Virus record (IMG/VR): IMGVR_UViG_2554235189_000012
Location: 1 to 17,836 of that record
Length of the DNA stretch: 17,836 nt
Source: a virus
Taxonomy: Duplodnaviria > Heunggongvirae > Uroviricota > Caudoviricetes
Direction: 5' to 3' (one strand)
A program made the position numbers and the translations under genes. Positions 1,249-16,675 of the stretch are shown piece by piece; positions within the stretch are counted from its first letter, which is position 1; every line of letters begins with the position of its first letter. The notes under the pieces were generated by a model. The model was not told the origin of the DNA, did no database searches, and was given only the letters and a program-made list of their open reading frames with translations.

Positions 1249-1257
1249 ACGTAAACT

Positions 1258-1301
1258 TTTTCCGGTTGTTGTCGATAGCTCTATATCCCTCAACCGGAAA
1301 A
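1258..1301. repeat. Perfect 11-bp inverted repeat (TTTTCCGGTTG ... CAACCGGAAAA) with 22-nt loop, 10 nt after cscB stop
   Basis: Read directly from sequence; no U-run on either strand after the stem, so not a classical intrinsic terminator. Confidence 0.5.
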
Positions 1302-1689
1302 TAATAATAGTAAAATGCTTAGCCCTGCTAATAATCGCCTAATCCAAACGCCTCATTCATGTTCTGGTACAGTCGCTCAAATGTACTTCAGATGCGCGGT
1401 TCGCTGATTTCCAGGACATTGTCGTCATTCAGTGACCTGTCCCGTGTATCACGGTCCTGCGAATTCATCAAGGAATGCATTGCGGAGTGAAGTATCGAGT
1501 CACGCCATATTTCGCTATCAGGATTCTGTGTGATGGTTACATCGCCCGGCTCAGGGCTGTTTAGTCATCAGCGCTTTCTGACAGTGCTGAGATTTCAACC
1601 TGTTGCAGTAAAAATGAGTAGATATAAGGCAAGTGTGCTGCCAAACCCATCTTTTACGGGGTGAAGGTAGATTTCGTTTGAAGGGTATC

Positions 1690-1704
1690 TGGTGTCCCCT
1701 GCAG
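1690..1704 (-). other. 15-nt segment matching the 3' end (T-stem/acceptor/CCA) of an Arg tRNA (argW-like), reverse orientation; candidate att core remnant
   Basis: tggtgtcccctgcag is the reverse complement of CTGCAGGGGACACCA, which I recall as the 3' end of E. coli tRNA-Arg(CCU); identity stops after 15 nt, so no complete tRNA gene is present. Confidence 0.4.
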
Positions 1705-1777
1705 ACATCTACTTGAAGCGACAGGGGATTGATTGGAATGGTGTTTTTTAGATGTGAAAAATATTTTACCCGCTATT

Positions 1778-1978
1778 TTACCCATTGGCGCGGCTTAAGA
1801 GCTTATTTTTGAATTCACAATGGTCACGATATAACCATCTTGCTCGCCCGTGGATAACTTTGGCTTTTGGCAGGTCGCCGGACTTAATCCGGTCGTAGAT
1901 GAAGGTTTTACCGAAGCCAGTATCGGCCATGATGAATTTCAAATCAACCAGTGAATCAGGCTGGAGTTCGTGTTGCAT
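1778..1978 (-). CDS. xis: Excisionase-like / AlpA-family small DNA-binding protein
   Basis: 66-aa ORF with GGAG about 9 nt upstream of ATG; motif FIMADTGFGKTFIYDRIKSGDLPKAKVIHGRARW resembles prophage excisionase/AlpA-type winged-helix proteins; located at the prophage-chromosome junction. Confidence 0.5.
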   Translation of the reverse strand: MQHELQPDSLVDLKFIMADTGFGKTFIYDRIKSGDLPKAKVIHGRARWLYRDHCEFKNKLLSRANG

Positions 1979-1997
1979 GAGTGCTATCTCCGAATAT

Positions 1998-2013
1998 GGA
2001 ATCGAACCTGCAA
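1998..2013 (-). other. 16-nt segment matching the T-arm of the same Arg tRNA (reverse orientation), on the other side of xis
   Basis: ggaatcgaacctgcaa is the reverse complement of TTGCAGGTTCGATTCC, the stretch I recall immediately 5' of the 15-nt piece at 1690-1704 in argW; flanks do not continue the tRNA. Confidence 0.3.
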
Positions 2014-2020
2014 ATCAGGT

Positions 2021-2043
2021 AATAAAAAACCGCCATCAGGCGG
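2021..2043 (-). terminator. Putative intrinsic terminator on minus strand (5-bp stem CCGCC/GGCGG, loop TGAT, then TTTTTTATT)
   Basis: Hairpin plus U-run read from sequence; short stem, so moderate confidence; sits at the 3' end of the IS2-interrupted ORF. Confidence 0.4.
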
Positions 2044-2083
2044 CTTGGTGTTCTTTCAGTTCTTCAATACAAATATTGGTTAC

Positions 2084-2088
2084 GTCTG
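2084..2088. repeat. IS2 target-site duplication GTCTG (left copy)
   Basis: Identical 5-bp GTCTG directly abuts both ends of the IS2 element; 5-bp duplication is typical for IS2. Confidence 0.8.
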
Positions 2089-2099
2089 TGGATTTGCCC

Positions 2100-3005
2100 C
2101 TATATTTCCAGACATCTGTTATCACTTAACCCATTACAAGCCCGCTGCCGCAGATATTCCCGTGGCGAGCGATAACCCAGCGCACTATGCGGATGCCATT
2201 CGTTATAATGCTCGAACGCCTCTGCAAGGTTCTTTGCTGCCGTTAACCCGTCTGGTTTGGGCATGATACTGATGTAGTCACGCTTTATCGTTTTCACGAA
2301 GCTCTCTGCTATTCCGTTACTCTCCGGACTCCGCACCGCCGTGTTCTTCGGTTCAAGTCCCAACATCCGGGCGAACTGGCGTGTTTCATTAGCCCGGTAG
2401 CATGAACCATTATCCGTCAGCCACTCCACTGGAGACGACGGAAGATCGTTGCCGAAGCGGCGTTCCACCGCTCCCAGCATGACGTCCTGTACTGTTTCAC
2501 TGTTGAAGCCGCCGGTAGTCACCGCCCAGTGCAGTGCCTCACGATCACAGCAGTCCAGCGCGAACGTGACACGCAGTCTCTCTCCGTTATCACAGCAGAA
2601 CTCGAACCCGTCAGAGCACCATCGCTGATTGCTTTCTTTCACGGCCACTCTGCCTGTATGTGCCCGTTTCGATGGCGGTACAGCAGGTTTTCGCTCAAGC
2701 AACAGCGCATTCTGGCGCATGATCCGGTAAACACGTTTGGCATTGATCGCAGGCATACCATCAAGTTCTGCCTGTCTGCGAAGCAGCGCCCATACCCGAC
2801 GATAACCATACGTGGGCAGCTCTCCGATAACATGGTGTATACGGAGAAGCACATCCGTATCATCAGTGTGACGACTGCGGCGGCCATCCATCCAGTCATC
2901 GGTTCGTCTGAGAATGACGTGCAACTGCGCACGCGACACCCGGAGACAACGGCTGACTAAGCTTACTCCCCATCCCCGGGCAATAAGGGCGCGTGCGCTA
3001 TCCAC
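2100..3005 (-). CDS. insD: IS2 transposase OrfB (DDE integrase-type catalytic domain)
   Basis: 301-aa [26 protein letters not shown]... recognised as IS2 InsD; overlaps the 3' end of insC as expected for an IS3-family -1 frameshift arrangement. Confidence 0.9.
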
Positions 3006-3328
3006 TTTTTTGCCCGTCCATATTCAACGGCTTCTTTGAGGAGTTCATTTTCCATCGTTTTCTTGCCGAGCAGGCGCTGGAGTTCTTTAATCTGCTTCAT
3101 GGCGGCAGCAAGTTCAGAGGCAGGAACAACCTGTTCTCCGGCGGCCACAGCAGTAAGACTTCCTTCCTGGTATTGCTTACGCCAGAGAAATAACTGGCTG
3201 GCTGCTACACCATGTTGCCGGGCAACGAGGGAGACCGTCATCCCCGGTTCAAAGCTCTGCTGAACAATTGCGATCTTTTCCTGTGTGGTACGCCGTCTGC
3301 GTTTCTCCGGCCCTAAGACATCAATCAT
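2963..3328 (-). CDS. insC: IS2 OrfA (HTH DNA-binding protein)
   Basis: 121-aa [44 protein letters not shown]... recognised as IS2 InsC; the ORF-track entry starts 15 codons further upstream. Confidence 0.9.
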
Positions 3329-3419
3329 CTGTTCTCCAATGACTAGTCTAAAAACTAGTATTAAGACTATCACTTATTTAAGTGATACTGGTTGTCTGGA
3401 GATTCAGGGGGCCAGTCTA

Positions 3420-3424
3420 GTCTG
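3420..3424. repeat. IS2 target-site duplication GTCTG (right copy)
   Basis: See left copy at 2084-2088. Confidence 0.8.
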
Positions 3425-3550
3425 CATGTGCTATCTGCGCCCATATCATCCAGTGGTCATAGCAGTCGTTGATGTTCTCTGCTTCGATAACCCTGTCGAA
3501 TGACTCTCCATTCCATTCACCTGTGACTCGGAAGTGCATTTATCATCTCC

Positions 3551-3577
3551 ATAAAACAAAACTCGCCGTAGCGAGTT
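3551..3577 (-). terminator. Putative intrinsic terminator on minus strand (stem AACTCGC/GCGAGTT, loop TACG, then TTTGTTTTAT)
   Basis: 7-bp inverted repeat followed by a U-rich tract on the minus strand, 43 bp downstream of the 3620-3811 gene. Confidence 0.5.
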
Positions 3578-3619
3578 CAGATAAAAGAAATCCATCAATT
3601 GGTTAGGGTTTTTGTAATT

Positions 3620-3811
3620 CTACGAATTATGTTGTTTTTTAGCTTCAGCTTTCCATTCATCAAAGGCAGTGTCTTTGTTCATGGTGCTGATATTGATCTT
3701 ACGGTCAATATCATATACACGCCACTCACCGTTGGGCCTCTCTTCGCATCTAACTAAGTATGAATTGCCATTAATATCTATGCGTCTGTCTATTTGCATG
3801 AACATTTTCAA
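3620..3811 (-). CDS. Hypothetical small protein (63 aa)
   Basis: ORF MKMFMQIDRRIDINGNSYLVRCEERPNGEWRVYDIDRKINISTMNKDTAFDEWKAEAKKQHNS; AGAGGA upstream of a TTG/ATG start cluster; preceded by an AT-rich region with a TATAAT box and followed by a terminator. Confidence 0.45.
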   Translation of the reverse strand: MKMFMQIDRRIDINGNSYLVRCEERPNGEWRVYDIDRKINISTMNKDTAFDEWKAEAKKQHNS

Positions 3812-3874
3812 TTTTCGAATCCTCTTTAATATGCATTTTTTGCTATTTCAGTAGTTTACTATTGATGAGGCGTT

Positions 3875-3880
3875 ATTATA
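3875..3880 (-). promoter_or_regulatory. Candidate promoter -10 element TATAAT on minus strand, upstream of the 3620-3811 gene
   Basis: Consensus TATAAT on the minus strand in the AT-rich 3812-3922 intergenic region; no well-spaced -35 (TTGCAT lies only 12 nt upstream), so weak evidence. Confidence 0.3.
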
Positions 3881-3922
3881 CACACTTCATTAATGCAAGC
3901 ATCTTTATGCTATGCTACTAAT

Positions 3923-4204
3923 TTAGCAATTGATATTCACCTTTATCGCGTATACCTTTACCGGTTTATCACCGAAGTGGGGGTGTGTGATTGTTTTCAC
4001 TTCATATCCTCCATACGGAACATCAATTCTGCGACTGGAGTCGTCGCGCTTCGGATATCCCTTTGTGATAATCAGGCGGTCATACTCCCGGAACATAATT
4101 CGCTTATTCCAATAGTCATTACACAGGCGATACTCTTCCGTTTTCTCCCCGCGAATCATGGCATCGAAGTATTCACCTTTGACGGCAAGTTGTAGGTTAG
4201 CCAC
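3923..4204 (-). CDS. ASCH/PUA-like small protein (93 aa)
   Basis: GTG start preceded by AGGAGG at 6-nt spacing; motif YFDAMIRGEKTEEYR resembles the conserved N-terminal signature of ASCH-domain proteins; start overlaps the stop of the upstream gene. Confidence 0.45.
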   Translation of the reverse strand: MANLQLAVKGEYFDAMIRGEKTEEYRLCNDYWNKRIMFREYDRLIITKGYPKRDDSSRRIDVPYGGYEVKTITHPHFGDKPVKVYAIKVNINC

Positions 4205-4499
4205 GGTTAACCTCCTGCGGAGTAGCCTTTACAAGCACTGGTGTAAATCCATCTTCATTAAGGTTATGAATATAGACTTCTGTTCTCCTGCGCTCTTCAA
4301 CGTTTAATATTGTTTCTGGATCATAAACCCATACTTTCATTCGACTATTCCATGAAGAAATCGCTTCAGATCTAGTTCGTTTTTCTGGTCCTTGGGCACC
4401 ACATTTGCATGACACATAGCGCATTTTCCCTCTGATACTGAATGAGTATCCGATATTAAGCACAGTGGAACCACAGAATGGGCAGCGATATAGATTCAT
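4197..4499 (-). CDS. Lar-family restriction-alleviation-like protein with C-terminal extension (100 aa)
   Basis: N-terminal CPFCGS...(22 aa)...CKCGAQGP...AISSWNSR matches the Lar-family zinc-ribbon pattern; start overlaps upstream stop (ATGA). Confidence 0.6.
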   Translation of the reverse strand: MNLYRCPFCGSTVLNIGYSFSIRGKMRYVSCKCGAQGPEKRTRSEAISSWNSRMKVWVYDPETILNVEERRRTEVYIHNLNEDGFTPVLVKATPQEVNRG

Positions 4500-5029
4500 A
4501 AATCATCCACCTTAGGCGCAGCTGAGACAGCAACATTCCAGAACTCAGAAAACATATTGTATGCACCAGATAGATTGGAAGTGGCATACCCTCCAAGCTC
4601 ACTTCTAATCTGAACGGCTCTCATCATTTCCGGTGCTAACTCCTTCGGCACCATAACCCAACCATCCGGAGTTACCGGAGAGTTGCCCGACAGCTCGTTC
4701 AACTTGTAAGTTTGGCTTACAGGTTCGGCTTCCAGTTCTGCTATGCGCTTTTTTGCTGCTTCCAGCTCGCCAAGCAGCGCCAAGACGGTAGCTGGATTGG
4801 CTGCGGCGATGAATTCAGCATTGGCCTGCTGTTCCATTTGGAAATCTTCATCGAAACCGCTTTCAGGATGCGCTCCTTCAATTCTGCAAATGGGAATATA
4901 TCCAACAACTTCACGATGAATTAGCGCATCACCAGCATCAAATCTCTCCTCTCCATATTCGAGCGACCACACACCACACGTTGCTTTCTCTGCCTTTTCA
5001 CGCAGTGCCTGATAGTCAATCTTGCTCAT
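4496..5029 (-). CDS. Ead/Ea22-like prophage protein (177 aa)
   Basis: N-terminus MSKIDYQALREKAEKATCGVW resembles the conserved N-terminus of Ead/Ea22-like proteins of lambdoid prophages; typical position between xis and the recombination genes. Confidence 0.5.
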   Translation of the reverse strand: MSKIDYQALREKAEKATCGVWSLEYGEERFDAGDALIHREVVGYIPICRIEGAHPESGFDEDFQMEQQANAEFIAAANPATVLALLGELEAAKKRIAELEAEPVSQTYKLNELSGNSPVTPDGWVMVPKELAPEMMRAVQIRSELGGYATSNLSGAYNMFSEFWNVAVSAAPKVDDL

Positions 5030-5030
5030 G

Positions 5031-5330
5031 TCACATCACCCTGAATCCGTTGCATTTACGTAAAAAATCGCAGATATAGCCCTTCATTTTTTCGTGCCAA
5101 TCTCGATCATTCCCATTGCACCAACCATAAGGTGGAGTCCAGTTTTCTATCAGAGCAGCCATTTTCTTTGCTTTTGCAGGAGTAGCTGTTGCGGTATCGC
5201 AGTAATGACGAGTGTCGATCAACGTATCCATACCATCGATATCAAGTACGCAAAACCATGTGTGATTCGGCATTTCAACAGATGGTATTTGTTGCCCACG
5301 TCGACGTTTATCAATAAGACATACAGTCAT
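5031..5330 (-). CDS. Hypothetical protein (99 aa)
   Basis: ORF with AAGGTGG upstream of ATG; start overlaps upstream stop (ATGA); no family recognised. Confidence 0.5.
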   Translation of the reverse strand: MTVCLIDKRRRGQQIPSVEMPNHTWFCVLDIDGMDTLIDTRHYCDTATATPAKAKKMAALIENWTPPYGWCNGNDRDWHEKMKGYICDFLRKCNGFRVM

Positions 5331-5872
5331 GGTTCCACCTTCTCTATTTGCTTAAGACCGTCTCTCACTGCATTAAGTACGCGTTCCAGATACTGGTATT
5401 TCGGGTTTGGTGCCGTTGGCCAGTCGGCATACCACGGATCATCACCAAAGAGATTCAGCAGTTTGTTACCGACACCGAAACAACAGCAGCTTTCTTTTAC
5501 GTCATCGGCGTTTTCCGCCTCGTCCCACATTTCGCGAGCCTGTACCGCGTCGATTTCTCTCTCTCTTCGTAAATTTATGATTTCTGACTTCACGAAAAGC
5601 AGATTTGCATCGTTGTCATCGTCGACCGTGCTTCGCAGTTGAGGGTCGAAATAGCCGATTAGATACTCGTTGCTGACCCGCTTAATGAACGTCTGCACAT
5701 CATCACCGCCCATAGCAAACCAAGCCGCAGTCCACGCTTTTCCGTAGCAGGTGATGGTGATTCTTCCCTTACCAGGTTCGTAGTTTTCAATCATCACTCG
5801 AACCGGATCTAGTCGCTCTGCACCGGTTATAACGAATGACAACACATCAATCTTTTCAACCGTTACACTCAC
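5327..5872 (-). CDS. Hypothetical protein (~181 aa, GTG start)
   Basis: The ORF track extends this frame to 6064, but that extension overlaps the Lar-like gene at 5856-6092 in another frame; AGGAGG lies 6 nt upstream of an in-frame GTG at 5872, the start preferred here. Start remains uncertain. Confidence 0.45.
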   Translation of the reverse strand: MSVTVEKIDVLSFVITGAERLDPVRVMIENYEPGKGRITITCYGKAWTAAWFAMGGDDVQTFIKRVSNEYLIGYFDPQLRSTVDDDNDANLLFVKSEIINLRREREIDAVQAREMWDEAENADDVKESCCCFGVGNKLLNLFGDDPWYADWPTAPNPKYQYLERVLNAVRDGLKQIEKVEP

Positions 5873-6092
5873 TGGTTGCCTCCTTTGCTCGCTGATTCCA
5901 CTCTGCTCTAACCTCTGAATAAAAAATCGCGCAGTCATTTCCAGGCGCTGCATATTTGCTACCAGATTGAGCGCGACACGTACCGCATCGAACGAAATAG
6001 AATCGACCGCCAGAGCCATATTCAGGGTGATCTGCTTCGCTGGCAACGTGCGCTGCGCCGCCACAGAATGGACATGGTAGTAGGTTGCTCAT
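5856..6092 (-). CDS. Lar-family restriction-alleviation-like protein, second paralog (78 aa)
   Basis: [16 protein letters not shown]...FYFVRCGTCRAQSGSKYA...AEWNQRA matches the Lar zinc-ribbon pattern; GAGGGAG upstream of ATG at 6092; start overlaps upstream stop (ATGA). Confidence 0.55.
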   Translation of the reverse strand: MSNLLPCPFCGGAAHVASEADHPEYGSGGRFYFVRCGTCRAQSGSKYAAPGNDCAIFYSEVRAEWNQRAKEATSECNG

Positions 6093-6565
6093 GAATGCAC
6101 TCCCTCGTGAAGCTGTTCCGCACAATGCAGCAGGGCGTCCGTCGCTTCTTTCACCGTAACGATATCGCCATCGTCCAGCCCGGCAACCGTCGCGTCCTTA
6201 ACGAACACCGAGCAAAGGTCATTAAACGCCTGCGCCCGTACTTCAGCCAGAAAAGCATCGGTAGCTGGAGTTTCAGTAACATCATCTTCCCATTCGCTAA
6301 ACTCCTCACGACAAAAGTCATTAAATTCCTTCTCAGATTGCTTAAGCGATGTATTTTCAGCAGCCATCTTCGCGCATTTAGCCTCAAGGTTATCAATCGT
6401 GATTCCAGCAGAACGACACTCCCGCAACGCAGTTTCCAGTTTTGATTCAAGCTCACCGAACTTACGCACCAGATATTCAGCGTTTGTTTCGTTAACCTTT
6501 AAATCTCGTGGGATGCATTTACCTTTCAGAAAACCATCCATCTCAATTAGTGACATTTGTTTCAT
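6089..6565 (-). CDS. Hypothetical, predicted coiled-coil protein (158 aa)
   Basis: [19 protein letters not shown]...; heptad-like charged repeats; no family recognised. Confidence 0.5.
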
Positions 6566-6726
6566 TTCTTCCCACTCCGCAACATTGCATTCAGATATTT
6601 GTTGTCATTAACAGAACCGAAACTCTTTCTCTTAAGCAATTCCTCTCTCGATGGCATTGGCTTTACGCGTTGGCGAATAATCATTTCTGCCGGAAGAATG
6701 CCGGGATTGTATGCAAGTCCTCTCAT
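6562..6726 (-). CDS. Hypothetical small basic protein (54 aa), below ORF-track size cutoff
   Basis: ATG at 6726 overlaps the stop of the upstream gene (ATGA), and its own TGA overlaps the ATG of the downstream gene; [54 protein letters not shown]; exactly fills the gap between two called genes. Confidence 0.35.
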
Positions 6727-7004
6727 GATTTACTCTCAACGAACTGGTCAATAGCCATGCTAAGTGACATACCTAAAGTTTCGATATGCTGCTGAATATC
6801 CTGTAGCGTCTGCGCCTGAGATAACAGGATTTCACGGTTGCATAACTCTTTAACCAGATGCTCAAACTTGCTGTAATAACCGATACGACTTAGTGTTTCT
6901 TTCCCTGCATTCTCTCCTTCTTTGATAATTCCTCTTTCGCTAAGAATCAGGTCGTGTTTGGTTCCGGTAATAACGTATTTTCCGAGGTCGATGTTTAGCT
7001 TCAT
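6723..7004 (-). CDS. Hypothetical protein (93 aa)
   Basis: ORF with GGAG upstream of ATG at 7004; no family recognised. Confidence 0.5.
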
Positions 7005-7020
7005 TGTTAATTACTCCATG

Positions 7021-7335
7021 TTAATTTATTCGTATGCCTGCTCTTTCTTCATCGAGTTTTTTTAGCTTGTATCGCATAGCTCTTACTGAATAAATTGAGC
7101 GGCAGGTTGCAATTGCTATTTCTTCTGCGGAGAACTTACCGAAAAGTGATACTTCGGCTCTTGTCCATCGTCTTCCACGAAGTCGGCTAACAATGTCAGC
7201 GCCAATCCTTGTTGCTTTCGCCATTACTGCTTTTTCAGTCCTTTCCAGTTTTTCAGCGATAACTTCAACTGGCATTGTCGCCGCTACTTCGCGCAAGAAA
7301 TCGACTTCCCATTTCTCCCATGGAGTCTTTTTCAT
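7021..7335 (-). CDS. Putative DNA-binding protein with two Myb/SANT-like repeats (104 aa)
   Basis: Two tandem ~40-aa segments each with a conserved Trp followed by helix-like A/E/I-rich stretches (WEKWEVDFLREVAATMPVEVIAEKL and RRWTRAEVSLFGKFSAEEIAIATCR); assignment is by pattern only. Confidence 0.4.
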   Translation of the reverse strand: MKKTPWEKWEVDFLREVAATMPVEVIAEKLERTEKAVMAKATRIGADIVSRLRGRRWTRAEVSLFGKFSAEEIAIATCRSIYSVRAMRYKLKKLDEERAGIRIN

Positions 7336-7346
7336 AGGCGATACCG

Positions 7347-7829
7347 TTATTTGATAAGAAGTGAAGGTTTCCCAACCTTGAGTTGAGCGCCTGGGATATT
7401 TATTCCTGCTTTTAGTTGGTGCTTGATTGCCAACTTGTCGGCTTTAATTGTCGTTTCAAACTCAACGTATTCAGGAGGAATGGCGCTTGAGTCGATGATT
7501 TCTACAGTTTCTGACGGTTTGCGGATTGTTACCTGGTGAATACCTGCTCGAATCTTTTTCTTGCCAACCATTTCAAGCGATGACGCTATATATGCCATAA
7601 TGCTATCAATCTTATTTTGAATTACTGCTGCTCGTTCATTCAGTGACTTTGCCTCGTCCTTGAGGCGTTCAGCATAACCAGATTCATTTTTAATAATGGC
7701 AAGAAGTTGCTCTATTTTATCGGTAAATTCTCCTTCCATGCCTTCTATTGTGTCAGCAATCATCTCTGGCTCTAAATCTGAATCCATCAGCTTTGCGTAT
7801 TCATTGGCTATTTCATACAGTTTGCTCAC
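7347..7829 (-). CDS. Mu Gam-like / Gp157-like protein (~160 aa)
   Basis: Directly downstream of recT; N-terminal predicted coiled coil and C-terminal G-x-V-x-I-R-x-P pattern resemble Mu Gam / siphovirus Gp157 family proteins; GTG start at 7829 preferred because GGAGG lies 6 nt upstream. Confidence 0.4.
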   Translation of the reverse strand: MSKLYEIANEYAKLMDSDLEPEMIADTIEGMEGEFTDKIEQLLAIIKNESGYAERLKDEAKSLNERAAVIQNKIDSIMAYIASSLEMVGKKKIRAGIHQVTIRKPSETVEIIDSSAIPPEYVEFETTIKADKLAIKHQLKAGINIPGAQLKVGKPSLLIK

Positions 7830-8724
7830 TGGCAACCTCCAGTTTCGCTTTGCATTCTATGTAAATGGCTTGTACGTTCTGCTGCAATTTCATTCCAGAT
7901 GTCAGGCGATATGCTTCTGCAAAATATCGCTTCAAATCATCCATGTTTTCTGCCTGAGCCATTTCATCGCAAAGAAGTTGTGCTTTATCCATTATTTCCT
8001 GCTGGCGTTTCCGTTCATCTTCGCGGATATCTTCCTCTGATTTGTGCGGCATAACTGGTTCAGTCCATACACCTTCTTCTTCGTTTAGTACGTGAATAGC
8101 ACTATCAAGACGTGATGCCTTAGGCCAATACTTGCTTGCACGCTTTACGACCGTCTTTCGCGCCATCTCATTCCAGTGATTTACCCATGGTCCTTTATCG
8201 CTGAATGCCGCCTTGCTTGTTTTCCTTACAGCCTCAATTTCAGCCAGACTCATCTCTTCCGTTAGATAATCACCTGCTGGCGTCTTAACTGTGCAGTAAA
8301 CGCCAACGATATCACCACGATCACCGAAGGCGTTGTATTTATGGGTTGGTGCTTTATCAAGCCCGTTTGACTCATAGGTATCGTTAGCATGAACAAGTTT
8401 TGCCTGACCCCATGAGATAACACCAGACTCCATTGCAATATGGAGCAATCCCATATAACTGATATCAAGGCACACCATGCCGTCGCGCGGAACCAGATAA
8501 GCCAGTTTGCTAGCCGGGTTTAAGGTGATGCCGATCGCCGCAACATTGATGATGGCGTTCTGTGCGCTGGTTGGATTTGCCAGTGCCGTTTTAGCCAGGT
8601 AATCATTTTTCTGGAAATACTGAATTGCAAACTGGCTTTCCTTAGCCCATGTCACCGTCTGTTCAGTCAATGCTCCGCAGAATAACTGCTCCTGCTGTTT
8701 AACGAATTCAACGATATTGCTCAT
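7813..8724 (-). CDS. recT: RecT-family single-strand annealing recombinase
   Basis: 303-aa ORF; motif GPWVNHWNEMARKTVVKRASKYWP closely parallels GPWVTHWEEMAKKTAIRRLFKYLP of E. coli RecT; GGAG RBS; position matches bet of lambda. Confidence 0.8.
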   Translation of the reverse strand: MSNIVEFVKQQEQLFCGALTEQTVTWAKESQFAIQYFQKNDYLAKTALANPTSAQNAIINVAAIGITLNPASKLAYLVPRDGMVCLDISYMGLLHIAMESGVISWGQAKLVHANDTYESNGLDKAPTHKYNAFGDRGDIVGVYCTVKTPAGDYLTEEMSLAEIEAVRKTSKAAFSDKGPWVNHWNEMARKTVVKRASKYWPKASRLDSAIHVLNEEEGVWTEPVMPHKSEEDIREDERKRQQEIMDKAQLLCDEMAQAENMDDLKRYFAEAYRLTSGMKLQQNVQAIYIECKAKLEVASEQTV

Positions 8725-9032
8725 GCTGCTTCTCCATAAATGTGTCTGCGTTTGAATATTGCGAAGGCATATTCAGCCTTAACTCTTTCGGTTATTGCAT
8801 CCCAGAACCATTCAGCGGCTTTTTCCTGATAGTCACAGTCATCATCTTCCAGCCAGTCGATAGCGTCCTTAGTGTGTTCATCTGGTTTATATGAGCGAAG
8901 CATTTCGCTTATTGGGTCGCAACGTTTGCAGAGGCGATCAACTTCACTGTTGATTCGTTCGTAATCATCATCAGTAAAACTTGCGATGATTTGCGATATT
9001 TCACGCTTATCATTCAGAGTCAGAATCATCAT
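8721..9032 (-). CDS. Hypothetical acidic protein (103 aa) at the gam/abc position
   Basis: ORF with AGGAGAAAG upstream of ATG; Asp/Glu-rich; lies between kil and recT where lambda has gam and P22 has abc1/abc2; function not assignable from sequence. Confidence 0.5.
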   Translation of the reverse strand: MMILTLNDKREISQIIASFTDDDYERINSEVDRLCKRCDPISEMLRSYKPDEHTKDAIDWLEDDDCDYQEKAAEWFWDAITERVKAEYAFAIFKRRHIYGEAA

Positions 9033-9113
9033 CTTTCTCCTGTTCTTTGTGCTGATTGAGCATTTCTTTCATCTGACGAATGAATTCTTCGTCTGACCAG
9101 TTATCTGTAAAAC

Positions 9114-9266
9114 TCATTTCCTGCGATACCACGGAAGGTTGATAGCTGATTTCATCGCTTTATTTGCTTCAAGCCACATTTTTGAATCACCAATAAATCT
9201 GGCTATTACTGCTTTGTTCTGTGCAGCACGAAGCATCTGGTGATTAATGGCTATTTCATTGCGCAT
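9114..9266 (-). CDS. kil: Kil-like host cell-division inhibitor (50 aa), below ORF-track size cutoff
   Basis: MRNEIAINHQMLRAAQNKAVIARFIGDSKMWLEANKAMKSAINLPWYRRK shares the IA-FIGD-KM-EA pattern I recall from lambda Kil; immediately downstream of cIII as in lambda; GAGG RBS 7 nt upstream. Confidence 0.45.
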   Translation of the reverse strand: MRNEIAINHQMLRAAQNKAVIARFIGDSKMWLEANKAMKSAINLPWYRRK

Positions 9267-9376
9267 AATAAGACCTCAACTCTTTTCCATCCGTCACGTA
9301 ATTTACGGGTGATTCGTTCAAGTAAAGATTCGGAAGGGCAGCCAGCAACAGGCCACCCTGCAATGGCATATTGCAT
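9251..9376 (-). CDS. cIII: CIII-like regulator (inhibitor of FtsH-mediated CII degradation)
   Basis: MQYAIAGWPVAGCPSESLLERITRKLRDGWKR matches the lambda CIII N-terminal region as I recall it; AAGGAG RBS; the ORF-track entry 9251-9478 includes a non-coding upstream extension. Confidence 0.8.
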   Translation of the reverse strand: MQYAIAGWPVAGCPSESLLERITRKLRDGWKRVEVLLCAMK

Positions 9377-9436
9377 GGTGTGCTCCTTATTTATACATAA
9401 CGAAAAACGCCTCTCGTGAAGCGTTATTGGTATGCA

Positions 9437-9463
9437 TATAAAAAGGCCCTCACACTGGAGGGC
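9437..9463 (-). terminator. Intrinsic terminator on minus strand (stem GCCCTC/GAGGGC, 6-nt loop, then CTTTTTAT) upstream of cIII
   Basis: GC-rich 6-bp hairpin followed by a U-run on the minus strand; analogous in position to a tL terminator that would need N antitermination for read-through. Confidence 0.55.
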
Positions 9464-9599
9464 AAAGAAGATTTCCAATAATCAGAACAAGTCGGCTCCT
9501 GTTTAGTTACGAGCGACATTGCTCCGTGTATTCACTCGTTGGAATGAATACACAGTGCAGTGTTTATTCTGTTGTTTATGCCAAAAATAAAGGCCACTA

Positions 9600-9851
9600 T
9601 CAGGCAGCTTTGTTGTAAATGTTGCAGGTATCAAGTAAGTAATTAGATGGAGCGCCATAAATTATGAATTCATCGTTTGTCTGGTCCATCTCCATCTCTT
9701 GGCCTATTGCCATTCTTGCGTCAGTGTCATCAGCGGCGAAGCATAAAACAGCCCACGCACCCATTGTTTTAAAAAGAACTGCAATTGGCTGTGGTTTTAC
9801 TGAATTTGCGTTAGCGCGAAAATCACAAATCGCACTTTCATGAAATTCCAT
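9600..9851 (-). CDS. Hypothetical protein (83 aa)
   Basis: ORF MEFHESAICDFRANANSVKPQPIAVLF...; preceded by the conserved 26-nt leader and a GAGGTGA RBS. Confidence 0.5.
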   Translation of the reverse strand: MEFHESAICDFRANANSVKPQPIAVLFKTMGAWAVLCFAADDTDARMAIGQEMEMDQTNDEFIIYGAPSNYLLDTCNIYNKAA

Positions 9852-9858
9852 ATCTCAC

Positions 9859-9884
9859 CTCAAATAATTGGTTTGCTGCCAAAA
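9859..9884 (-). promoter_or_regulatory. Conserved 26-nt 5' leader element, copy 1 (minus strand TTTTGGCAGCAAACCAATTATTTGAG)
   Basis: 25/26 identical to a second copy at 10096-10121; both end 7 nt upstream of an ATG start codon. Confidence 0.4.
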
Positions 9885-9893
9885 GAAAACCGA

Positions 9894-10088
9894 CTATGCG
9901 TCCTGTCGTTTTTCCGACGCTCTATTCATTTCCTGCCAGATGGCAACTACAGCATCTTCAATATTTCTTTCCTTCAGATCCCATAAATCCCACAGGCCTG
10001 GCATCTCATGACCAAGTTCATCTAAAAGTTTTTTTGCTCCAGCCTGAATCACGTTCTCACTCAGTTGAATCTCTGTTGTTGATTTCAT
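9894..10088 (-). CDS. Hypothetical protein (64 aa; alternative start at 10154 would give 86 aa)
   Basis: ATG at 10088 is preceded by GAGAGGA and the conserved leader; the upstream in-frame ATG at 10154 overlaps the previous stop (ATGA) and cannot be excluded. Confidence 0.45.
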   Translation of the reverse strand: MKSTTEIQLSENVIQAGAKKLLDELGHEMPGLWDLWDLKERNIEDAVVAIWQEMNRASEKRQDA

Positions 10089-10095
10089 AATTCCT

Positions 10096-10121
10096 CTCAA
10101 ATAAGTGGTTTGCTGCCAAAA
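10096..10121 (-). promoter_or_regulatory. Conserved 26-nt 5' leader element, copy 2 (minus strand TTTTGGCAGCAAACCACTTATTTGAG)
   Basis: See copy 1 at 9859-9884. Confidence 0.4.
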
Positions 10122-10150
10122 CAATGAACCATCCGGAAATTCCAGATAGT

Positions 10151-10375
10151 TCATAATTCACTCTTCAATACTTCCAACTTACTAATCGCCGATAGATATC
10201 CGCGCTGATAGGGCATCATCATTCCTTCGAGCTTGCCACTTCTTAACTCCTCCCTGAGCAATTGTATTGCTTGATCAATAACCTCTGCCTTAGCGTCCTT
10301 TATGGCTTGCTTGCGGGGCTTTGCTTTCTGCTTTGGCAGATTTCTCAAGCATGATGGAATGTATGTCTGATTCAT
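10151..10375 (-). CDS. Hypothetical basic protein (74 aa) immediately downstream of N
   Basis: ATG 3 nt after the N stop codon, GAGG upstream; Lys/Arg-rich; no family recognised. Confidence 0.5.
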   Translation of the reverse strand: MNQTYIPSCLRNLPKQKAKPRKQAIKDAKAEVIDQAIQLLREELRSGKLEGMMMPYQRGYLSAISKLEVLKSEL

Positions 10376-10378
10376 CAC

Positions 10379-10651
10379 TTACCTCGCTGTCAGTTGTTTT
10401 GATTTCCGGTAGCCTGCCGCGTAAAGAGCTACGTTTGGCAGGCAAATACTTCCACTGCATTCATCTGCCTTCTTGCAGCGAAGGCCTCCGAGTGATGCTG
10501 CTTTATCTGCTCTGACGCAACCAGAGAGCTTTAGCGCAATTTTTCGCGCCAGTCGCTGCTCTTGCATTGCCTGTTCACGTTGAGCCTGTCTGCGTGCTCT
10601 GCGGCGATTTCTGGCGTTATCGTCAGCCAGATATGTAATGACTACTGCCAT
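10379..10651 (-). CDS. N: N-like transcription antitermination protein with arginine-rich motif
   Basis: 90-aa ORF with GGAGG RBS; Arg-rich N-terminus (NARNRRRARRQAQREQ); central and C-terminal segments (ARKIALKLSGCVRADKAASLG..., VALYAAGYRKSKQLTAR) resemble phage 21 and P22 N proteins as recalled; lies downstream of pL/nutL. Confidence 0.75.
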   Translation of the reverse strand: MAVVITYLADDNARNRRRARRQAQREQAMQEQRLARKIALKLSGCVRADKAASLGGLRCKKADECSGSICLPNVALYAAGYRKSKQLTAR

Positions 10652-10758
10652 GTTGACCTCCGATGATTGACTTTGGCGGTGACGCGCCGGGTGCTTATCT
10701 TCCGGTTGCCGTCGTGCAGCTGCACTTCACGTCACCCCAAAGCCAACTACTCTTTGGT

Positions 10759-10799
10759 TCCCGCATTTCGGCGGGACAATCCCATCAATGTTAAAGAGC
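10759..10799 (-). promoter_or_regulatory. nutL-like site: boxA GCTCTTTAAC plus boxB hairpin TCCCGCCGAAATGCGGGA (minus strand)
   Basis: The same boxA and boxB sequences occur on the plus strand between cro and cII (nutR); each lies downstream of its promoter. Confidence 0.55.
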
Positions 10800-10845
10800 C
10801 TGCCAATCTGTTCCGTTTGGCTACCAGCGTCCTGCTGATGGCTAA

Positions 10846-10874
10846 AGAATACTGTAGGTATTTTATTGTGTAAA
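10846..10874 (-). promoter_or_regulatory. Candidate pL promoter (-35 TTTACA, 17-nt spacer, -10 TATTCT) overlapping operators
   Basis: Hexamers read on the minus strand overlap two AATAC-N5-GTATT operators; the same -10 hexamer and operator arrangement occur at pR. Confidence 0.4.
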
Positions 10875-10932
10875 TACCCAAGGTATTTATTTTTGATGAA
10901 ATAATGATAAGCAAATGAATACAAAGGATATT
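10848..10932. promoter_or_regulatory. oL operator region: three AATAC-N5-GTATT-type sites (10848-10862, 10873-10887, 10918-10932)
   Basis: AATACTGTAGGTATT, AATACCCAAGGTATT (part of a perfect 17-bp palindrome AAATACCCAAGGTATTT), AATACAAAGGATATT; same half-site as the oR sites. Confidence 0.55.
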
Positions 10933-11018
10933 TATTTTTTCGGTGTCTGCTTGTTCAGTGCTTTTTATGCGGGATATGTGAAGTGGATCCCGATAGCTAT
11001 TGCTGCCGGGATTATAGG

Positions 11019-11387
11019 TTAGTCAGCGAAGGTTAAGACGAGAATTACCTTAATGATGTCTGCTACAACAGACACGGCCATAGATAAACCAAAGACGATC
11101 CAAGCCACAGTGATGTCTTCACTACCATCGTATAGAGTTCCGTAATCACTGGTGTAAGGCGTAAATGTCGCGCCTTGATACAATAGGTATAAGCTTGATC
11201 CATAGAGGATAAATGCAGATATCCCTTGTATTGCTATGATCACCAGAATCATGAAACGAGCTGATCTATGCGCCCAAGCCTGGCTTATTTTTTCTGATAG
11301 AGATTTCGCAATAAAAGTATGCGCTAAGCCGTAAATTGTCGAGATTGCCAACATCCCAAAAAAGCTTGCTATAGCGGTTCCAACCAT
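11019..11387 (-). CDS. Small integral membrane protein (~122 aa, three predicted TM helices) downstream of cI
   Basis: ORF begins 18 nt after the cI stop with AAGGGG upstream of ATG at 11387 (the ORF track starts it at a TTG inside the cI stop); three hydrophobic segments; occupies the position of rexAB in lambda. Confidence 0.6.
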   Translation of the reverse strand: MVGTAIASFFGMLAISTIYGLAHTFIAKSLSEKISQAWAHRSARFMILVIIAIQGISAFILYGSSLYLLYQGATFTPYTSDYGTLYDGSEDITVAWIVFGLSMAVSVVADIIKVILVLTFAD

Positions 11388-11404
11388 AATCGCCCCTTGC
11401 GTGA

Positions 11405-12121
11405 TCAAACCAGCCTTAGTTTTGTCTCAATTGCAACGCCTATAATCTTGCAGTTTCCATTGATTGGCACGAGAGGCCATGCAGGATTAAGTCCCTTGAG
11501 GTATTTATTTCCGCCGTCGATTATCAGCTTCTTGAATGTTGCTTCGTTAGAGTCAGAAAGTTTTGCTATGACCAAGCTGCCGTTGATCGCCTCCCTTCCG
11601 GTATCGAAAAGAACGAATGTTCCCTCTGGAATACTTAACCCAACCGGTGCCGTCATTGAATCACCTTCCACTTTAAGCCAGAACGCATTACCTTGAATAT
11701 GCGCGTCAGACTCAAGCCAAACATCTATGTCTTTAATGGTGTATGGTTCGCATGCTTCACACCACGAGCCAGCCTGGATACTGCTTAACACCGGATACCT
11801 CTTTCCTGCTCTGTATTCCCCTGCATACCTTACGTTGGCATCGCTCTTAAGGCTTTCTGCCTGTTCTGCAACCTTGGCAGCAATTGACTGGCTAAAATCA
11901 GCAATTGAGACTTGCAACAAACGTGCAAAACCAGATGCGACCTCAACGTTTAGCGCGTTTCTGCCATTAAGATAATGCCCTACCGCTCCTTGGGTGATAC
12001 CCAGTTCATCAGCGATTGAGTATTGGGTTATTCCCAATTCTTTCTTTTTTGACTCATACAAAGCCTTAAGCCGCTTAGCGTCTTCGAGCTGTTCTGTCGT
12101 CAGTGATTTTTTATTTTCCAT
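11405..12121 (-). CDS. cI: CI-type prophage repressor (HTH_XRE N-terminal domain plus LexA/S24-like C-terminal domain)
   Basis: 238-aa ORF; N-terminus TEQLEDAKRLKALYESKKKELGITQYSIADELG parallels lambda CI; C-terminal FWLKVEGDSMTAP matches the S24 autocleavage domain; divergent from cro with operators between. Confidence 0.9.
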   Translation of the reverse strand: MENKKSLTTEQLEDAKRLKALYESKKKELGITQYSIADELGITQGAVGHYLNGRNALNVEVASGFARLLQVSIADFSQSIAAKVAEQAESLKSDANVRYAGEYRAGKRYPVLSSIQAGSWCEACEPYTIKDIDVWLESDAHIQGNAFWLKVEGDSMTAPVGLSIPEGTFVLFDTGREAINGSLVIAKLSDSNEATFKKLIIDGGNKYLKGLNPAWPLVPINGNCKIIGVAIETKLRLV

Positions 12122-12156
12122 AGCTTAATTCTAATAGCTAAGGTACTTAAACTAAA

Positions 12157-12196
12157 AATACCCTGAGTATTGATTGCTTTGAATACCTGTAGTATT
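12157..12196. promoter_or_regulatory. oR operator region: two AATAC-N5-GTATT sites (12157-12171, 12182-12196)
   Basis: AATACCCTGAGTATT and AATACCTGTAGTATT, 10 bp apart, between cI and cro; a third site nearer cI could not be defined. Confidence 0.55.
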
Positions 12197-12198
12197 CT
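12170..12198 (+). promoter_or_regulatory. Candidate pR promoter (-35 TTGATT, 17-nt spacer, -10 TATTCT)
   Basis: Hexamers overlap the two oR sites; cro ATG about 30 nt downstream. Confidence 0.4.
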
Positions 12199-12227
12199 TT
12201 GTTCATGGTTAATAACGGAGAGTGCAT

Positions 12228-12422
12228 ATGATTCGAATGACACTTGCCGATTACGCCAAAATCCATGGACAGGCTAAAGCAGCCAGTGACTTTGGTGTAA
12301 TCCAGTGCGCTATCAGCAAGGCCATTCTGGCAGGCCGTAACATTATGGTTACGGTAAAGCCTGATGGCAGTGTGATTGGAGAGGAAGTTCGTCCTTTCCC
12401 AAGCAACAAGAAAAACAAATAG
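12228..12422 (+). CDS. cro: Cro-like repressor
   Basis: 64-aa [65 protein letters not shown], homologous in pattern to lambda Cro; GGAG RBS; the ORF track starts it at an upstream GTG. Confidence 0.8.
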
Positions 12423-12429
12423 TAACACC

Positions 12430-12473
12430 GCTCTTTAACAGTCATGGTCCTCATTCCCGCCGAAATGCGGGAA
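12430..12473 (+). promoter_or_regulatory. nutR-like site: boxA GCTCTTTAAC plus boxB hairpin TTCCCGCCGAAATGCGGGAA
   Basis: 7-bp stem and 6-nt loop hairpin 14 nt after boxA, between cro and cII; boxB core identical to nutL. Confidence 0.55.
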
Positions 12474-12530
12474 TACAACGCGCATAAGTTGATGCGCATA
12501 ACTTCTTATTTGTTAAGGAAATACTTACAT

Positions 12531-12824
12531 ATGGTTCGTGCAAACAAACGCAACGAGGCTCTACGAATCGAGAGTGCGTTGCTTAACAAAATCGCAATGC
12601 TTGGAACTGAGAAGACAGCGGAAGCTGTGGGAGTTGATAAGTCGCAGATCAGCAGGTGGAAGAGGGACTGGATTCCAAAGTTCTCAATGCTGCTTGCTGT
12701 TCTTGAATGGGGCGTCGTTGACGACGATATGGCTCGATTGGCACGACAAGTTGCTTCGATTCTCACCAATAAAAAACGCCCGGCGGCAACCGAGCGTTCT
12801 GAACAAATCCAGATGGAATTCTGA
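12531..12824 (+). CDS. cII: CII transcriptional activator (lambda-type)
   Basis: 97-aa product [51 protein letters not shown]... is, as far as I can recall, essentially identical to lambda CII; upstream RBS region also lambda-like. Confidence 0.9.
12540..12553 (-). promoter_or_regulatory. CII-binding TTGC-N6-TTGC repeat of a pRE-type promoter (minus strand)
   Basis: Minus strand reads TTGCGTTTGTTTGC inside the 5' end of cII, as in lambda pRE. Confidence 0.5.
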
Positions 12825-12846
12825 GGTCATTACTGGATCTATCAAC
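12770..12846 (-). ncRNA. oop: Possible oop-like antisense RNA (terminator hairpin within 3' end of cII; promoter only partly conserved)
   Basis: Lambda-like sequence at the cII 3' end includes a GC-rich hairpin followed by TTTTTTATTGG on the minus strand; a CATAAT -10 is retained but the -35 region differs because the downstream sequence is not lambda-like. Extent inferred by analogy. Confidence 0.3.
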
Positions 12847-12856
12847 AGGAGTAATT

Positions 12857-13002
12857 ATGACAAAACAACTCAGTCCTTACCAGGACAAAATTCACAAACA
12901 CATACTACGTGATCGCTTCCTGTCCAGCTTCAAGCAGCCTGGTCGATTCAGGGCTGAGTTGGAAAAAGTGAAGCTGATGCAGAAGGAGAAAGGTCATGAG
13001 TA
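12857..13002 (+). CDS. Hypothetical 48-aa protein between cII and the O-like gene (reminiscent of P22 orf48 by position and size)
   Basis: AGGAG 6 nt upstream of ATG at 12857; [48 protein letters not shown]; stop overlaps the O-like start; its RBS and first codons coincide with where lambda O would start. Confidence 0.4.
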
Positions 13003-13856
13003 ATATTGCAACCGTAACACATTTAAGGCCTTCACAACGGCCTGTGGAGCGTCGTGTGGCAGAAGTTGAAGATGGTTATACCCGTCTTGCAAATGCCCTG
13101 TATGAAGAGCTTATCGGCGCTGATTTAACGAAAAATCAGAGCAAGGTTGCCCACGCCATATGCCGTAAAACATACGGCTACGGTAAAAAGATGGATCGCA
13201 TCTCTGATAGTCAGTTAGCTCAAATTACCAGGCTGCCAAGACAGAAGGTAAACAAGGCCAAGAATGAGCTTATCGCGATGAAGGTTATCCTTCGCGAAGG
13301 CCAGCAAATCGGGCCTAACAAGAACATCGAAGAATGGCAAATCGAAGGGTGTCACTACTCTGGTGATAATGTCACCGCATTGGTGACAAAAAGTGTCACC
13401 AAAACGGTGACAGCGCTGTCACCAAAACAGGGACACACAAAAGAAACTATTACAAAAGAAAAAAGAAATAATAAAAACACTATGTCCGAAAGTGTTCGGA
13501 CGGAGTGTGAAAAATCACCTGACCGTCACGAAGAAACCGACAAGGCATTCGAGGAAATATTCTGGTGTGCAGGCATGCGGAAAGCCGGGAAGAAAAACGC
13601 AGCTTCGGCATTCAGAACACAGTTCAGGGAATGGCGTAAAACTACCAGGGGTACGGCAAGCGAGTTTGCCACGATGCTGGCAGAAGACATCGCATGCAGG
13701 AATGGTAAGCAGTTCGGATTCGACAGGTTGTTACCATCGAGCTACCTGAACGGTCAGCGCTGGAACGACGAAAAGCCAGAAACCATTCAACCACAATCCA
13801 AACCATCATCCGCAATCACCGTATCGAAAACTGGCTACGTGTTTTTCGACAGGTGA
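12996..13856 (+). CDS. Replication initiator, lambda O-like N-terminal domain with a heterologous C-terminal domain
   Basis: 286-aa ORF with AAGGAG RBS; N-terminal region ([56 protein letters not shown]...GPNKNIEEW) parallels lambda O; internal iteron array and AT-rich tract; C-terminus unlike lambda O. Confidence 0.8.
13349..13480. repeat. Putative replication origin: four TGTCACC-N4-7-GGTGACA-type iterons followed by an A-rich tract
   Basis: Four ~20-bp-spaced dyad repeats inside the O-like gene, then GGGACACACAAAAGAAACTATTACAAAAGAAAAAAGAAATAATAAAAAC, closely resembling the lambda ori layout. Confidence 0.6.
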
Positions 13857-13859
13857 ACC

Positions 13860-13967
13860 ATGAAATCAAAAATCAAATCGCTACTGGTCGCTGGTTATAA
13901 CCACGGCTGGTTAAGTATTTCGTTTGTCGATTTCTGGTTTAAAAATCTCAATCTGAGGGAATCATGA
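13860..13967 (+). CDS. Possible 35-aa coupling ORF between O-like and primase-helicase genes
   Basis: ATG 4 nt after the O-like stop with AGGTGA upstream; MKSKIKSLLVAGYNHGWLSISFVDFWFKNLNLRES; its stop overlaps the helicase ATG (ATGA). Could equally be non-coding. Confidence 0.25.
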   Translation: MKSKIKSLLVAGYNHGWLSISFVDFWFKNLNLRES

Positions 13968-15844: not shown

Positions 15845-15873
15845 ATGACCATCTACATTACTGAGCTAATAAC

Positions 15874-15906: not shown

Positions 15907-15932
15907 CATCAGAAACAGAGTGAGGTGAGAGC

Positions 15933-16121: not shown

Positions 16122-16146
16122 CACCCCAGCACACTAATGGAGAGAA

Positions 16147-16673: not shown

Positions 16674-16675
16674 CG

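Follow-up and report, generated by a model that had tools for sequence, protein, structure and literature searches.

How a lambdoid phage might recombine its DNA with an annealing protein but no exonuclease of its own is the question raised by a stretch of 17,836 nucleotides (nt), positions 1 to 17,836 of the IMG/VR virus record IMGVR_UViG_2554235189_000012 (Caudoviricetes), hereafter called the window. It represents the immunity and early region of an Escherichia coli lambdoid prophage. A sequence-only reading of this DNA had singled out a non-canonical recombination block made of recT, a gene for a protein of about 160 amino acids (aa) and an acidic 103-aa open reading frame (ORF). All three ORFs lie on the minus strand where that reading had placed them, but the block is larger than the three genes, a 35-aa and a 104-aa gene at its two ends having been overlooked. 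In the order of transcription its members are as follows.

9010-9117, minus strand: 35-aa acidic ORF, MSFTDNWSDEEFIRQMKEMLNQHKEQEKDDDSDSE, a possible accessory gene like arf of P22 (phrog_17766, E=7.5e-16)
8721-9032, minus strand: acidic 103-aa protein, uncharacterised (phrog_3486, E=4e-59)
7813-8724, minus strand: RecT-family single-strand annealing protein, 303 aa (PF03837, E=3.7e-32; phrog_148, E=6e-92)
7347-7829, minus strand: Sipho_Gp157 family protein, 160 aa (PF05565, E=8e-37, full length; phrog_253, E=3e-53)
7021-7335, minus strand: accessory 104-aa protein, similar to P22 Abc1 and Mu gp9 at the family level (phrog_323, E=2.8e-20)

This block is a recombination (Rec) module of the HK140 type and belongs to the leftward early operon, in which transcription from PL reaches it behind N, cIII and kil. 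Genes overlap at three of its four internal junctions (35-aa ORF with 103-aa gene, by 23 nt; 103-aa gene with recT; recT with the Gp157 gene, by 17 nt), while 11 nt separate the Gp157 gene from the 104-aa gene; the junction with kil overlaps too, the ATG of the 35-aa ORF being fused to the kil stop (ATGA). Promoter-like and terminator-like matches within the block show no excess over chance. The same five genes stand in the same order in 79 of 80 related viral loci, the remaining one being a truncated contig. Over the block, phages HK140, mEpX1, Kapi1, Gally, Louie and others are 96-98% identical to the window in nucleotides (HK140 at 98%), the match of the window to HK140, mEpX1 and Gally stopping exactly at 9117; and at a coverage of at least 80% the block is found in 266 of 5426 complete E. 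coli genomes, at 90-99% identity, where the Prokaryotic Genome Annotation Pipeline names its genes “recombinase RecT” and “siphovirus Gp157 family protein.”

In a 2025 survey of 325 lambdoid phages by Zheng, Casjens, Davidson, Amundsen and Smith, which classified their Rec modules, HK140 appears as strand-annealing type 4 with MuGam, the phage nuclease being absent (PMC12315714). Since the same block is published for HK140 as RecT plus MuGam with no nuclease, the module is not non-canonical: it belongs to an established, already catalogued type. In that survey, a nuclease gene is missing from 84 of 246 Rec modules of Enterobacteriales lambdoid phages, and the P22 functional class, in which an anti-RecBCD function and an annealing protein operate with no nuclease, numbers 46 phages (PMC12315714). 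The HK140-type module falls in this class, with an annealing protein, an end-protection or anti-RecBCD function and no nuclease of its own. Between the window and HK140 or mEpX1 there is essentially no difference in genes or order; the survey, in its main text, counts only RecT and MuGam as module genes (PMC12315714), and the other three (103-aa, 35-aa and 104-aa) carry the annotation hypothetical or “D5-like regulator.” The module is thus best seen as a common, catalogued way for lambdoid phages to arrange recombination with no nuclease of their own, and the 103-aa protein is the only part of it not already explained. The overall picture, which we consider rather probable, is that RecT anneals, that Gp157 and the 103-aa protein provide end protection or act against RecBCD, and that the host supplies the single-stranded DNA (ssDNA).

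The annealing protein itself presents no difficulty. As the sequence-only reading had it, the 303-aa protein is a RecT, scoring above the cutoffs of both PF03837 (111.9 bits against 24) and TIGR00616 (82.4 bits against 52.65), with a core at residues 31-217 and a helical C-terminal extension of about 85 aa. It is 67-73% identical to the RecT of phage HK639 (67%) and to that of a distant related locus, L090, and in both of these Gp157 comes next. An annealing protein of the RecT family is common to the window and to the Rac RecET and Gifsy-type RecE-RecT systems, but RecE is absent from the window module, and the window RecT, at 101.7 bits, falls far short of the 296 bits set as cutoff for the Rac RecT equivalog. 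The three Gp157-linked RecTs are too similar (67-73%) to show whether the C-terminal domain of RecT covaries with its partner.

The absence of an exonuclease, the central claim of the sequence-only reading, was borne out. No ORF scanned in the window, in the PL operon or in the right arm, has a Pfam or PHROG match to a nuclease family, be it YqaJ, DUF3799/RecE or any other. The block hence lacks the adjacent 5′-3′ exonuclease, of YqaJ/lambda Exo or RecE/DUF3799 PD-(D/E)XK type, by which canonical Red and RecET systems are recognised. A nuclease hidden in the 245-aa ORF (5327-6064) or the 158-aa ORF (6089-6565) was considered and set aside, as sequence-based searches, which would pass over a nuclease of novel fold, gave no Pfam, NCBIfam or PDB match for either; PDB sequence searches with Gp157, the profile of the 103-aa family, the 245-aa ORF and the 104-aa ORF gave nothing significant. 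Relatives of the 103-aa gene, both close and distant, do adjoin RecE-like or YqaJ exonucleases (L087, L088 and L089, SEN22, ENT47670, Midgardsormr38 and phiEt88, described below). One might imagine the block as a decayed remnant, its exonuclease lost in a defective prophage and the rest no longer functional, a notion to which the insertion sequence IS2, some 3.6 kb further down the operon, and the lack of an integrase gene within the window lend some colour. We regard it as very improbable: all five ORFs are intact and tightly packed, with the overlaps already noted; the identical arrangement recurs in HK140, mEpX1, Kapi1, Gally and Louie and in the 266 complete genomes at 90-99% identity; and diverged versions in HK639 and L090, at 60-73% protein identity, keep RecT followed by Gp157 with no nuclease. 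In phage Louie (L005, 3327-3794) an HNH endonuclease gene lies exactly between recT and gp157 in a block otherwise 96% identical; it has the look of a mobile element rather than of a nuclease belonging to the module.

For the protein encoded next to RecT, the sequence-only reading had offered Mu Gam/Gp157-like features, and only the second half of that label holds at profile thresholds. The mechanical ORF opens at TTG 7835 (7347-7835); translation most likely begins at the GTG at 7829, giving 160 aa, because GGAGG lies six bases ahead of it and most of the 120 homologues listed are 160 aa long. Against PF05565 the protein scores 127.1 bits (cutoff 28.6), its residues 5-162 covering profile positions 1-162. 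Against PF07352, the family to which Mu Gam belongs, it reaches 15.6 bits where 28.3 is the cutoff (E=0.016), and BLASTP finds no similarity between it and Mu Gam. Yet sub-threshold PF07352 matches, collinear and near full-length, occur in 5 of the 9 Gp157 family members scanned (E from 0.002 to 0.045), hhalign aligns Gp157 with Mu Gam over the C-terminal beta region at E=0.07, and the AlphaFold2 (AF2) model (predicted local distance difference test score, pLDDT, 76) shows long helices and a C-terminal beta domain. The label of phrog_253 is “Mu Gam-like end protection,” and the HK140 Gp157 is classed as MuGam type in the 2025 survey (PMC12315714). A remote kinship with Mu Gam, as PHROG and the survey assume, is plausible from these profile-level similarities, and binding and protection of double-stranded DNA ends by Gp157 is presumed by analogy.

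The 103-aa protein has no such label. It is acidic, as the sequence-only reading had noted (isoelectric point 4.57; 25 D+E against 15 K+R), and would be 102 aa long if the second ATG (9029) is used; it is predicted to be all-helical, with five helices in the AF2 model (pLDDT 79.9). No Pfam or NCBIfam model covers its family. A word-indexed search retrieved close relatives only, and an exhaustive profile search of 1.84 billion representatives gave 54 matches, mostly of about 100 aa and down to about 25% identity; the members identified are from Enterobacterales phages and prophages. Run over genome contigs, the family alignment gave 67 pattern matches, none of which was confirmed. The genes around further members are arranged as follows, in the order of transcription.

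L087: family member, DUF3799 nuclease, RecT
L088: cIII, kil-like gene, family member, RecT, YqaJ
L089: kil-like gene, family member, RecT, YqaJ
L090: cIII, kil-like gene, family member, RecT, Gp157
Cronobacter phage ENT47670: kil, 33-aa arf-like gene, family member, RecT, exonuclease
Erwinia phage Midgardsormr38: cIII, kil-like gene, family member, RecT, exonuclease
Erwinia phage phiEt88: family member, exonuclease VIII, RecT
Salmonella phage SEN22: a copy of the 103-aa gene and an Abc1-like gene around a RecE-like DUF3799 nuclease and a 189-aa protein

Because the contexts of the distant members are uniform, with and without a nuclease, the family is the standard gam-slot gene of RecT-type modules, regardless of nuclease presence. 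The sequence-only reading had placed the gene at the lambda gam or P22 abc position. The first part is right, the gene lying between kil and the annealing protein; the second is not, since in P22 it is arf that precedes erf, abc1 and abc2 being downstream of it. Relative to lambda Red (cIII-kil-gam-bet-exo), the window module has the same operon position, with the 103-aa gene in the place of gam and with no Exo. In the GamL modules of HK639 and phi80 it is gamL that takes this place, and HK639 reads kil, GamL, RecT, Gp157, so that the slot between kil and RecT holds GamL and Gp157 follows RecT as in the window. GamL is cited as a RecBCD inhibitor in the survey (PMC12315714).

Two observations attach to this family. 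The first is a cassette swap: comparison of SEN22 (L004, 3013-5025) with the window (7021-9032) shows the RecE-like nuclease and the 189-aa protein (phrog_11517) replacing RecT and Gp157 between flanks that remain 94% (103-aa gene) and 91% (Abc1-like gene) identical. SEN22 is entered in the survey with a nuclease and a single-stranded DNA-binding protein, no annealing protein and no anti-RecBCD gene (PMC12315714). The second concerns translation. In the window and at the four distant junctions read (L087 to L090), the family member ends in a stop that overlaps the start of the gene behind it, and such an overlap also follows from the annotated coordinates of SEN22, ENT47670, Midgardsormr38 and phiEt88. 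The C-terminal E-[A/V]-A codons of the family (8721-8735 in the window) carry the Shine-Dalgarno sequence of the downstream gene and its overlapping start (ATGA, TGATG or TAATG), and part of the apparent protein conservation at this C-terminus is probably a nucleotide-level constraint from translational coupling.

The same set of contexts bears on Gp157 and gives the overall picture its main competitor, namely that Gp157 is a dedicated partner of RecT sitting in the exonuclease slot, where it would load RecT, bridge ends or recruit a host helicase or nuclease, and that the gam-slot protein (103-aa here, GamL in HK639) supplies the anti-RecBCD function. The slot after RecT is filled by YqaJ in the sister modules L088, L089, ENT47670 and Midgardsormr38, and by Gp157 in the window, HK639 and L090; a gam-slot gene is present upstream in every RecT-Gp157 module examined, and would be redundant if Gp157 itself inhibits RecBCD. 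Because of these two patterns, the data point to a RecT-tied role for Gp157, instead of or besides generic RecBCD inhibition. The joint replacement of RecT and Gp157 by the SEN22 cassette, and the fact that the similarity to Mu Gam stays under threshold, go in the same direction. Against a dedicated partner, Gp157 has no recognisable catalytic or helicase-binding motif; it is grouped with Mu Gam by PHROG and by the survey (PMC12315714); the sub-threshold PF07352 matches in 5 of 9 members are collinear and near full-length; and in Firmicutes phages, where erf and sak4 usually adjoin Mu Gam-like and Gp157 genes, the two kinds of gene are interchangeable in that position (PMC8093625). On balance we judge the dedicated-partner arrangement unlikely, and keep end protection by Gp157 as part of the overall picture.

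What, then, might the gam-slot protein be doing? Profile-profile comparison of the 103-aa family with a lambda Gam alignment gave a collinear match of 28 columns (P=9.4e-4), centred on the most conserved motif of the family, DDDCDYQEKAAE in the window protein and DDDVEFQERMAE in Gam. Its score of 23.3 was reached by none of 200 column-shuffled Gam alignments (mean 11.3, standard deviation 2.3, maximum 19.2). Both lambda Gam and the 103-aa protein are small and acidic, and we take lambda GamS to be similar in the order and lengths of its helices to the five-helix model. Several results weigh against a Gam relationship. The sequence-only reading had named lambda Gam among the comparisons to be made, and the 103-aa protein has no match to PF06064 at E<=0.1. 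A Foldseek search of its model against the viral structures of BFVD gave no match at E<=0.001 and no viral Gam model. The N-terminal helix motif MNAY..DR.E..W, present in lambda Gam and in GamL, is missing from the 103-aa family. Gam and GamL align with each other over their N-terminal 64 columns (probability 91%), whereas the match of the 103-aa family with Gam is confined to columns 56-83; it is the N-terminal helix of Gam that enters RecBCD. Other identities were tried and set aside. The family profile gives no alignment with HK639 GamL, and the protein has no significant similarity to P22 Abc2, another comparison that had been named (BLASTP E=2.6), nor to Abc1 or Arf; phrog_656, the Abc2 family, has no match in any window ORF scanned. 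A distant relation of the 103-aa family to the C-terminal half of Gam is therefore possible at the level of sequence profiles, membership of the Gam family is not established, and the protein is a candidate nuclease inhibitor mainly by virtue of its position. Modulation of RecBCD, which the sequence-only reading had ventured, is consistent with that position, with GamL in the same slot of HK639 and with the weak Gam similarity.

We tentatively propose, as something a little short of an even chance, that the 103-aa family inhibits RecBCD or another host nuclease and has so far escaped recognition as doing so; it would be a very divergent relative or an analogue of Gam, serving as the standard gam-slot gene of RecT-type modules. 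A competing account has the protein unrelated to RecBCD, either as an accessory factor for the proteins encoded downstream, as Arf is for Erf, or as a protein that blocks a different host nuclease or a defence system. This account would be in keeping with the way its stop runs into the first recombination gene, as read in the window and in L087 to L090 and implied by coordinates in SEN22 and three further phages, with the missing Gam/GamL N-terminal motif and with the lack of significant similarity to Abc2, Abc1 and Arf. Yet the family occurs with three different partner sets (RecT with Gp157; RecT with YqaJ; and RecT, or the 189-aa protein of SEN22, beside a RecE-like nuclease), and a specific protein partner is therefore disfavoured. 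Moreover, the modules that carry the family have otherwise no anti-RecBCD gene, whereas most lambda-type modules have one according to the survey (PMC12315714); HK639 has GamL at this position; and none of the 200 shuffles reaches the score of the local match with lambda Gam. A role away from RecBCD is accordingly a possibility that we hold to be somewhat doubtful.

If the 103-aa family is indeed an inhibitor of this kind, several things would follow. An anti-RecBCD gene would be present in modules now scored without one, such as SEN22 and perhaps Edno5 (the Foldseek match to a 104-aa protein of Edno5 is non-significant, E=2.0). Two end-protection functions would be the rule for RecT-Gp157 modules, where HK639 now looks like the exception, and Gp157 would probably have a role beyond RecBCD inhibition, as the non-nucleolytic partner of RecT. 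The family is well delimited and open to testing as a candidate new inhibitor of RecBCD or another nuclease; if confirmed, it would sharpen the association reported between the scarcity of Chi sites in lambdoid phages and their anti-RecBCD genes, and would make the protein a possible small tool for recombineering or for the protection of linear DNA.

Taken with the observed gene identities, order, overlaps, block conservation and lack of a recognisable nuclease match, the overall picture can be spelled out as a mechanism. RecT would be the catalytic core, annealing phage ssDNA to complementary ssDNA at replication forks or at resected ends, and so would yield the concatemers and recombinants needed for packaging. 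Replication-fork gaps are the main annealing target in recombineering of the Red-beta/RecT type. Gp157, like Mu Gam and Ku, would probably bind the double-stranded ends of rolling-circle tails and cut genomes and so keep exonucleases, RecBCD among them, away. The 103-aa protein, in the place of lambda Gam and HK639 GamL, would most likely neutralise a host nuclease, with RecBCD the prime candidate. The 3′ ssDNA for RecT would then come not from a phage exonuclease but from the host, either through resection of the RecQ/RecJ type once RecBCD is blocked or from lagging-strand gaps, and NinB/Orf, encoded in the right operon, may help RecT or RecA to use it. That the module may rely on host nucleases or on DNA-end protection had been suggested by the sequence-only reading; this, or a combination of the two, is reasonable, and it matches the treatment in the published survey (PMC12315714). 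Against the scheme stand the missing Gam/GamL motif and PF06064 match of the 103-aa family and the redundancy that would arise if Gp157 and the 103-aa protein both blocked RecBCD, so that at least one of them probably does something else. With Gp157 beside RecT where an exonuclease would otherwise be, the module lends itself to the study of how an annealing protein comes by its ssDNA with no cognate nuclease.

Comparison with P22 (kil-arf-erf-abc1-abc2) limits how far the mechanism can be borrowed. P22 is of the same functional class, having no nuclease and combining an annealing protein with small accessory genes, but its annealing protein is Erf where that of the window is RecT, and it has no counterpart of Gp157 or of the 103-aa protein. 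The window in turn has no Abc2 homologue, and therefore hijacking of RecBCD through RecC in the P22 style cannot be assumed.

The genes at the two ends of the block do recall P22. The 35-aa ORF matches phrog_2123 (“recombinase”) at E=7e-12 and phrog_2445, the Arf family, weakly (E=0.045), and it has in common with P22 Arf an SDEEFI motif and a position after kil. It is present in 80 of 80 close loci and annotated in phage Louie, and a 33-aa homologue precedes the 103-aa family member in ENT47670. The 104-aa protein contains two repeats of a small helix-turn-helix-like unit; its gene is found in 79 of 80 close loci, truncated in the remaining one, and is labelled “similar to P22 Abc1” in the annotation of phage Gally. 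The family phrog_323 also holds P22 Abc1 (E=1.3e-23) and Mu gp9 (E=5e-29), and BLASTP relates the 104-aa protein to Mu gp9 at E=5e-5. A direct similarity to P22 Abc1 was looked for by BLASTP and not found; the link runs only through phrog_323 and Mu gp9. Abc1 has been reported to have a helix-turn-helix domain (bioRxiv 10.1101/2023.04.06.535777), and Arf and Abc1 are described in the survey as non-essential helpers of unknown molecular function (PMC12315714). We infer that the Arf-like and Abc1/gp9-like proteins are accessory factors.

In phage Mu (L091, 5482-6325), gp9, a 99-aa protein of phrog_323, is encoded directly upstream of gam, mirroring the pair formed by Gp157 and the 104-aa protein in the window, although the window Gp157 is a member of PF05565 with a sub-threshold match to the Mu Gam profile and Mu Gam is a member of PF07352. 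This adjacency hints that Mu-Gam-type proteins and this small helix-turn-helix family are linked in function. The pairing is not universal: in HK639 and L090 Gp157 is followed by another protein, and in SEN22 the 104-aa gene occurs with no Gp157. A small protein of phrog_1680, with the N-terminus MKK.P.[FY]RR, follows the recombination pair in HK639 (L092, 1764-2192), L090 (2130-2510) and L089 (1939-2268), where it takes the slot of the Abc1/gp9-like gene of the window; it represents an uncharacterised module-associated family.

Two proteins from E. coli prophages, P0022 and P0025, are natural chimeras of products of this region. In P0022, the N-terminal half of the 103-aa protein is fused to the C-terminus of the protein of the 158-aa ORF (6089-6565), a fusion that implies loss of recT, gp157 and their neighbours by deletion. 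In P0025, the 35-aa ORF is fused to the C-terminal half of the 103-aa protein at repeated KDDD/EDDD codons.

The setting of the module is a lambdoid early region, with the leftward PL operon running from an N-like gene through cIII, kil and the Rec block to Ea22-like and Lar-like genes and other small ORFs. The gene kil marks the upstream boundary of the module and is context, not a recombination gene.

10379-10651, minus strand: N-like antiterminator, in the leftward PL operon
within 9251-9478, minus strand: cIII, in the PL operon
9114-9266, minus strand: kil, septation inhibitor (phrog_2055, E=1.2e-35)
11405-12121, minus strand: cI-type repressor
12222-12422, rightward: cro
12444-12824, rightward: cII-like gene
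12996-13856, rightward: O-like replication protein
13964-15844, rightward: primase-helicase
16670-17086, plus strand: NinB/Orf recombination mediator (PF05772, E=2.3e-55)
right operon: NinB, NinE and NinF

Behind the O-like initiator, the gene at 13964-15844 encodes a 626-aa fusion of a primase (Toprim) and a DnaB-like helicase, not a loader of the lambda P type. Chi sites number 0 in the window against 0.34 expected, a count that the length of the window makes uninformative. In the distal PL operon there are two ORFs of the Lar type with a zinc ribbon (CPFCG motif), at 5856-6125 and 4197-4499; the first overlaps the mechanical 245-aa ORF, whose protein belongs to phrog_3451 and whose true start is probably internal. 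IS2 (InsC/InsD; NF006918, E=1e-219) occupies about 2089-3419, and the match to other E. coli genomes ends at 2088. Beyond IS2 lie a TorI-like excisionase gene (about 1778-1978) and a gene for an oligosaccharide transporter of the major facilitator superfamily (1-1248).

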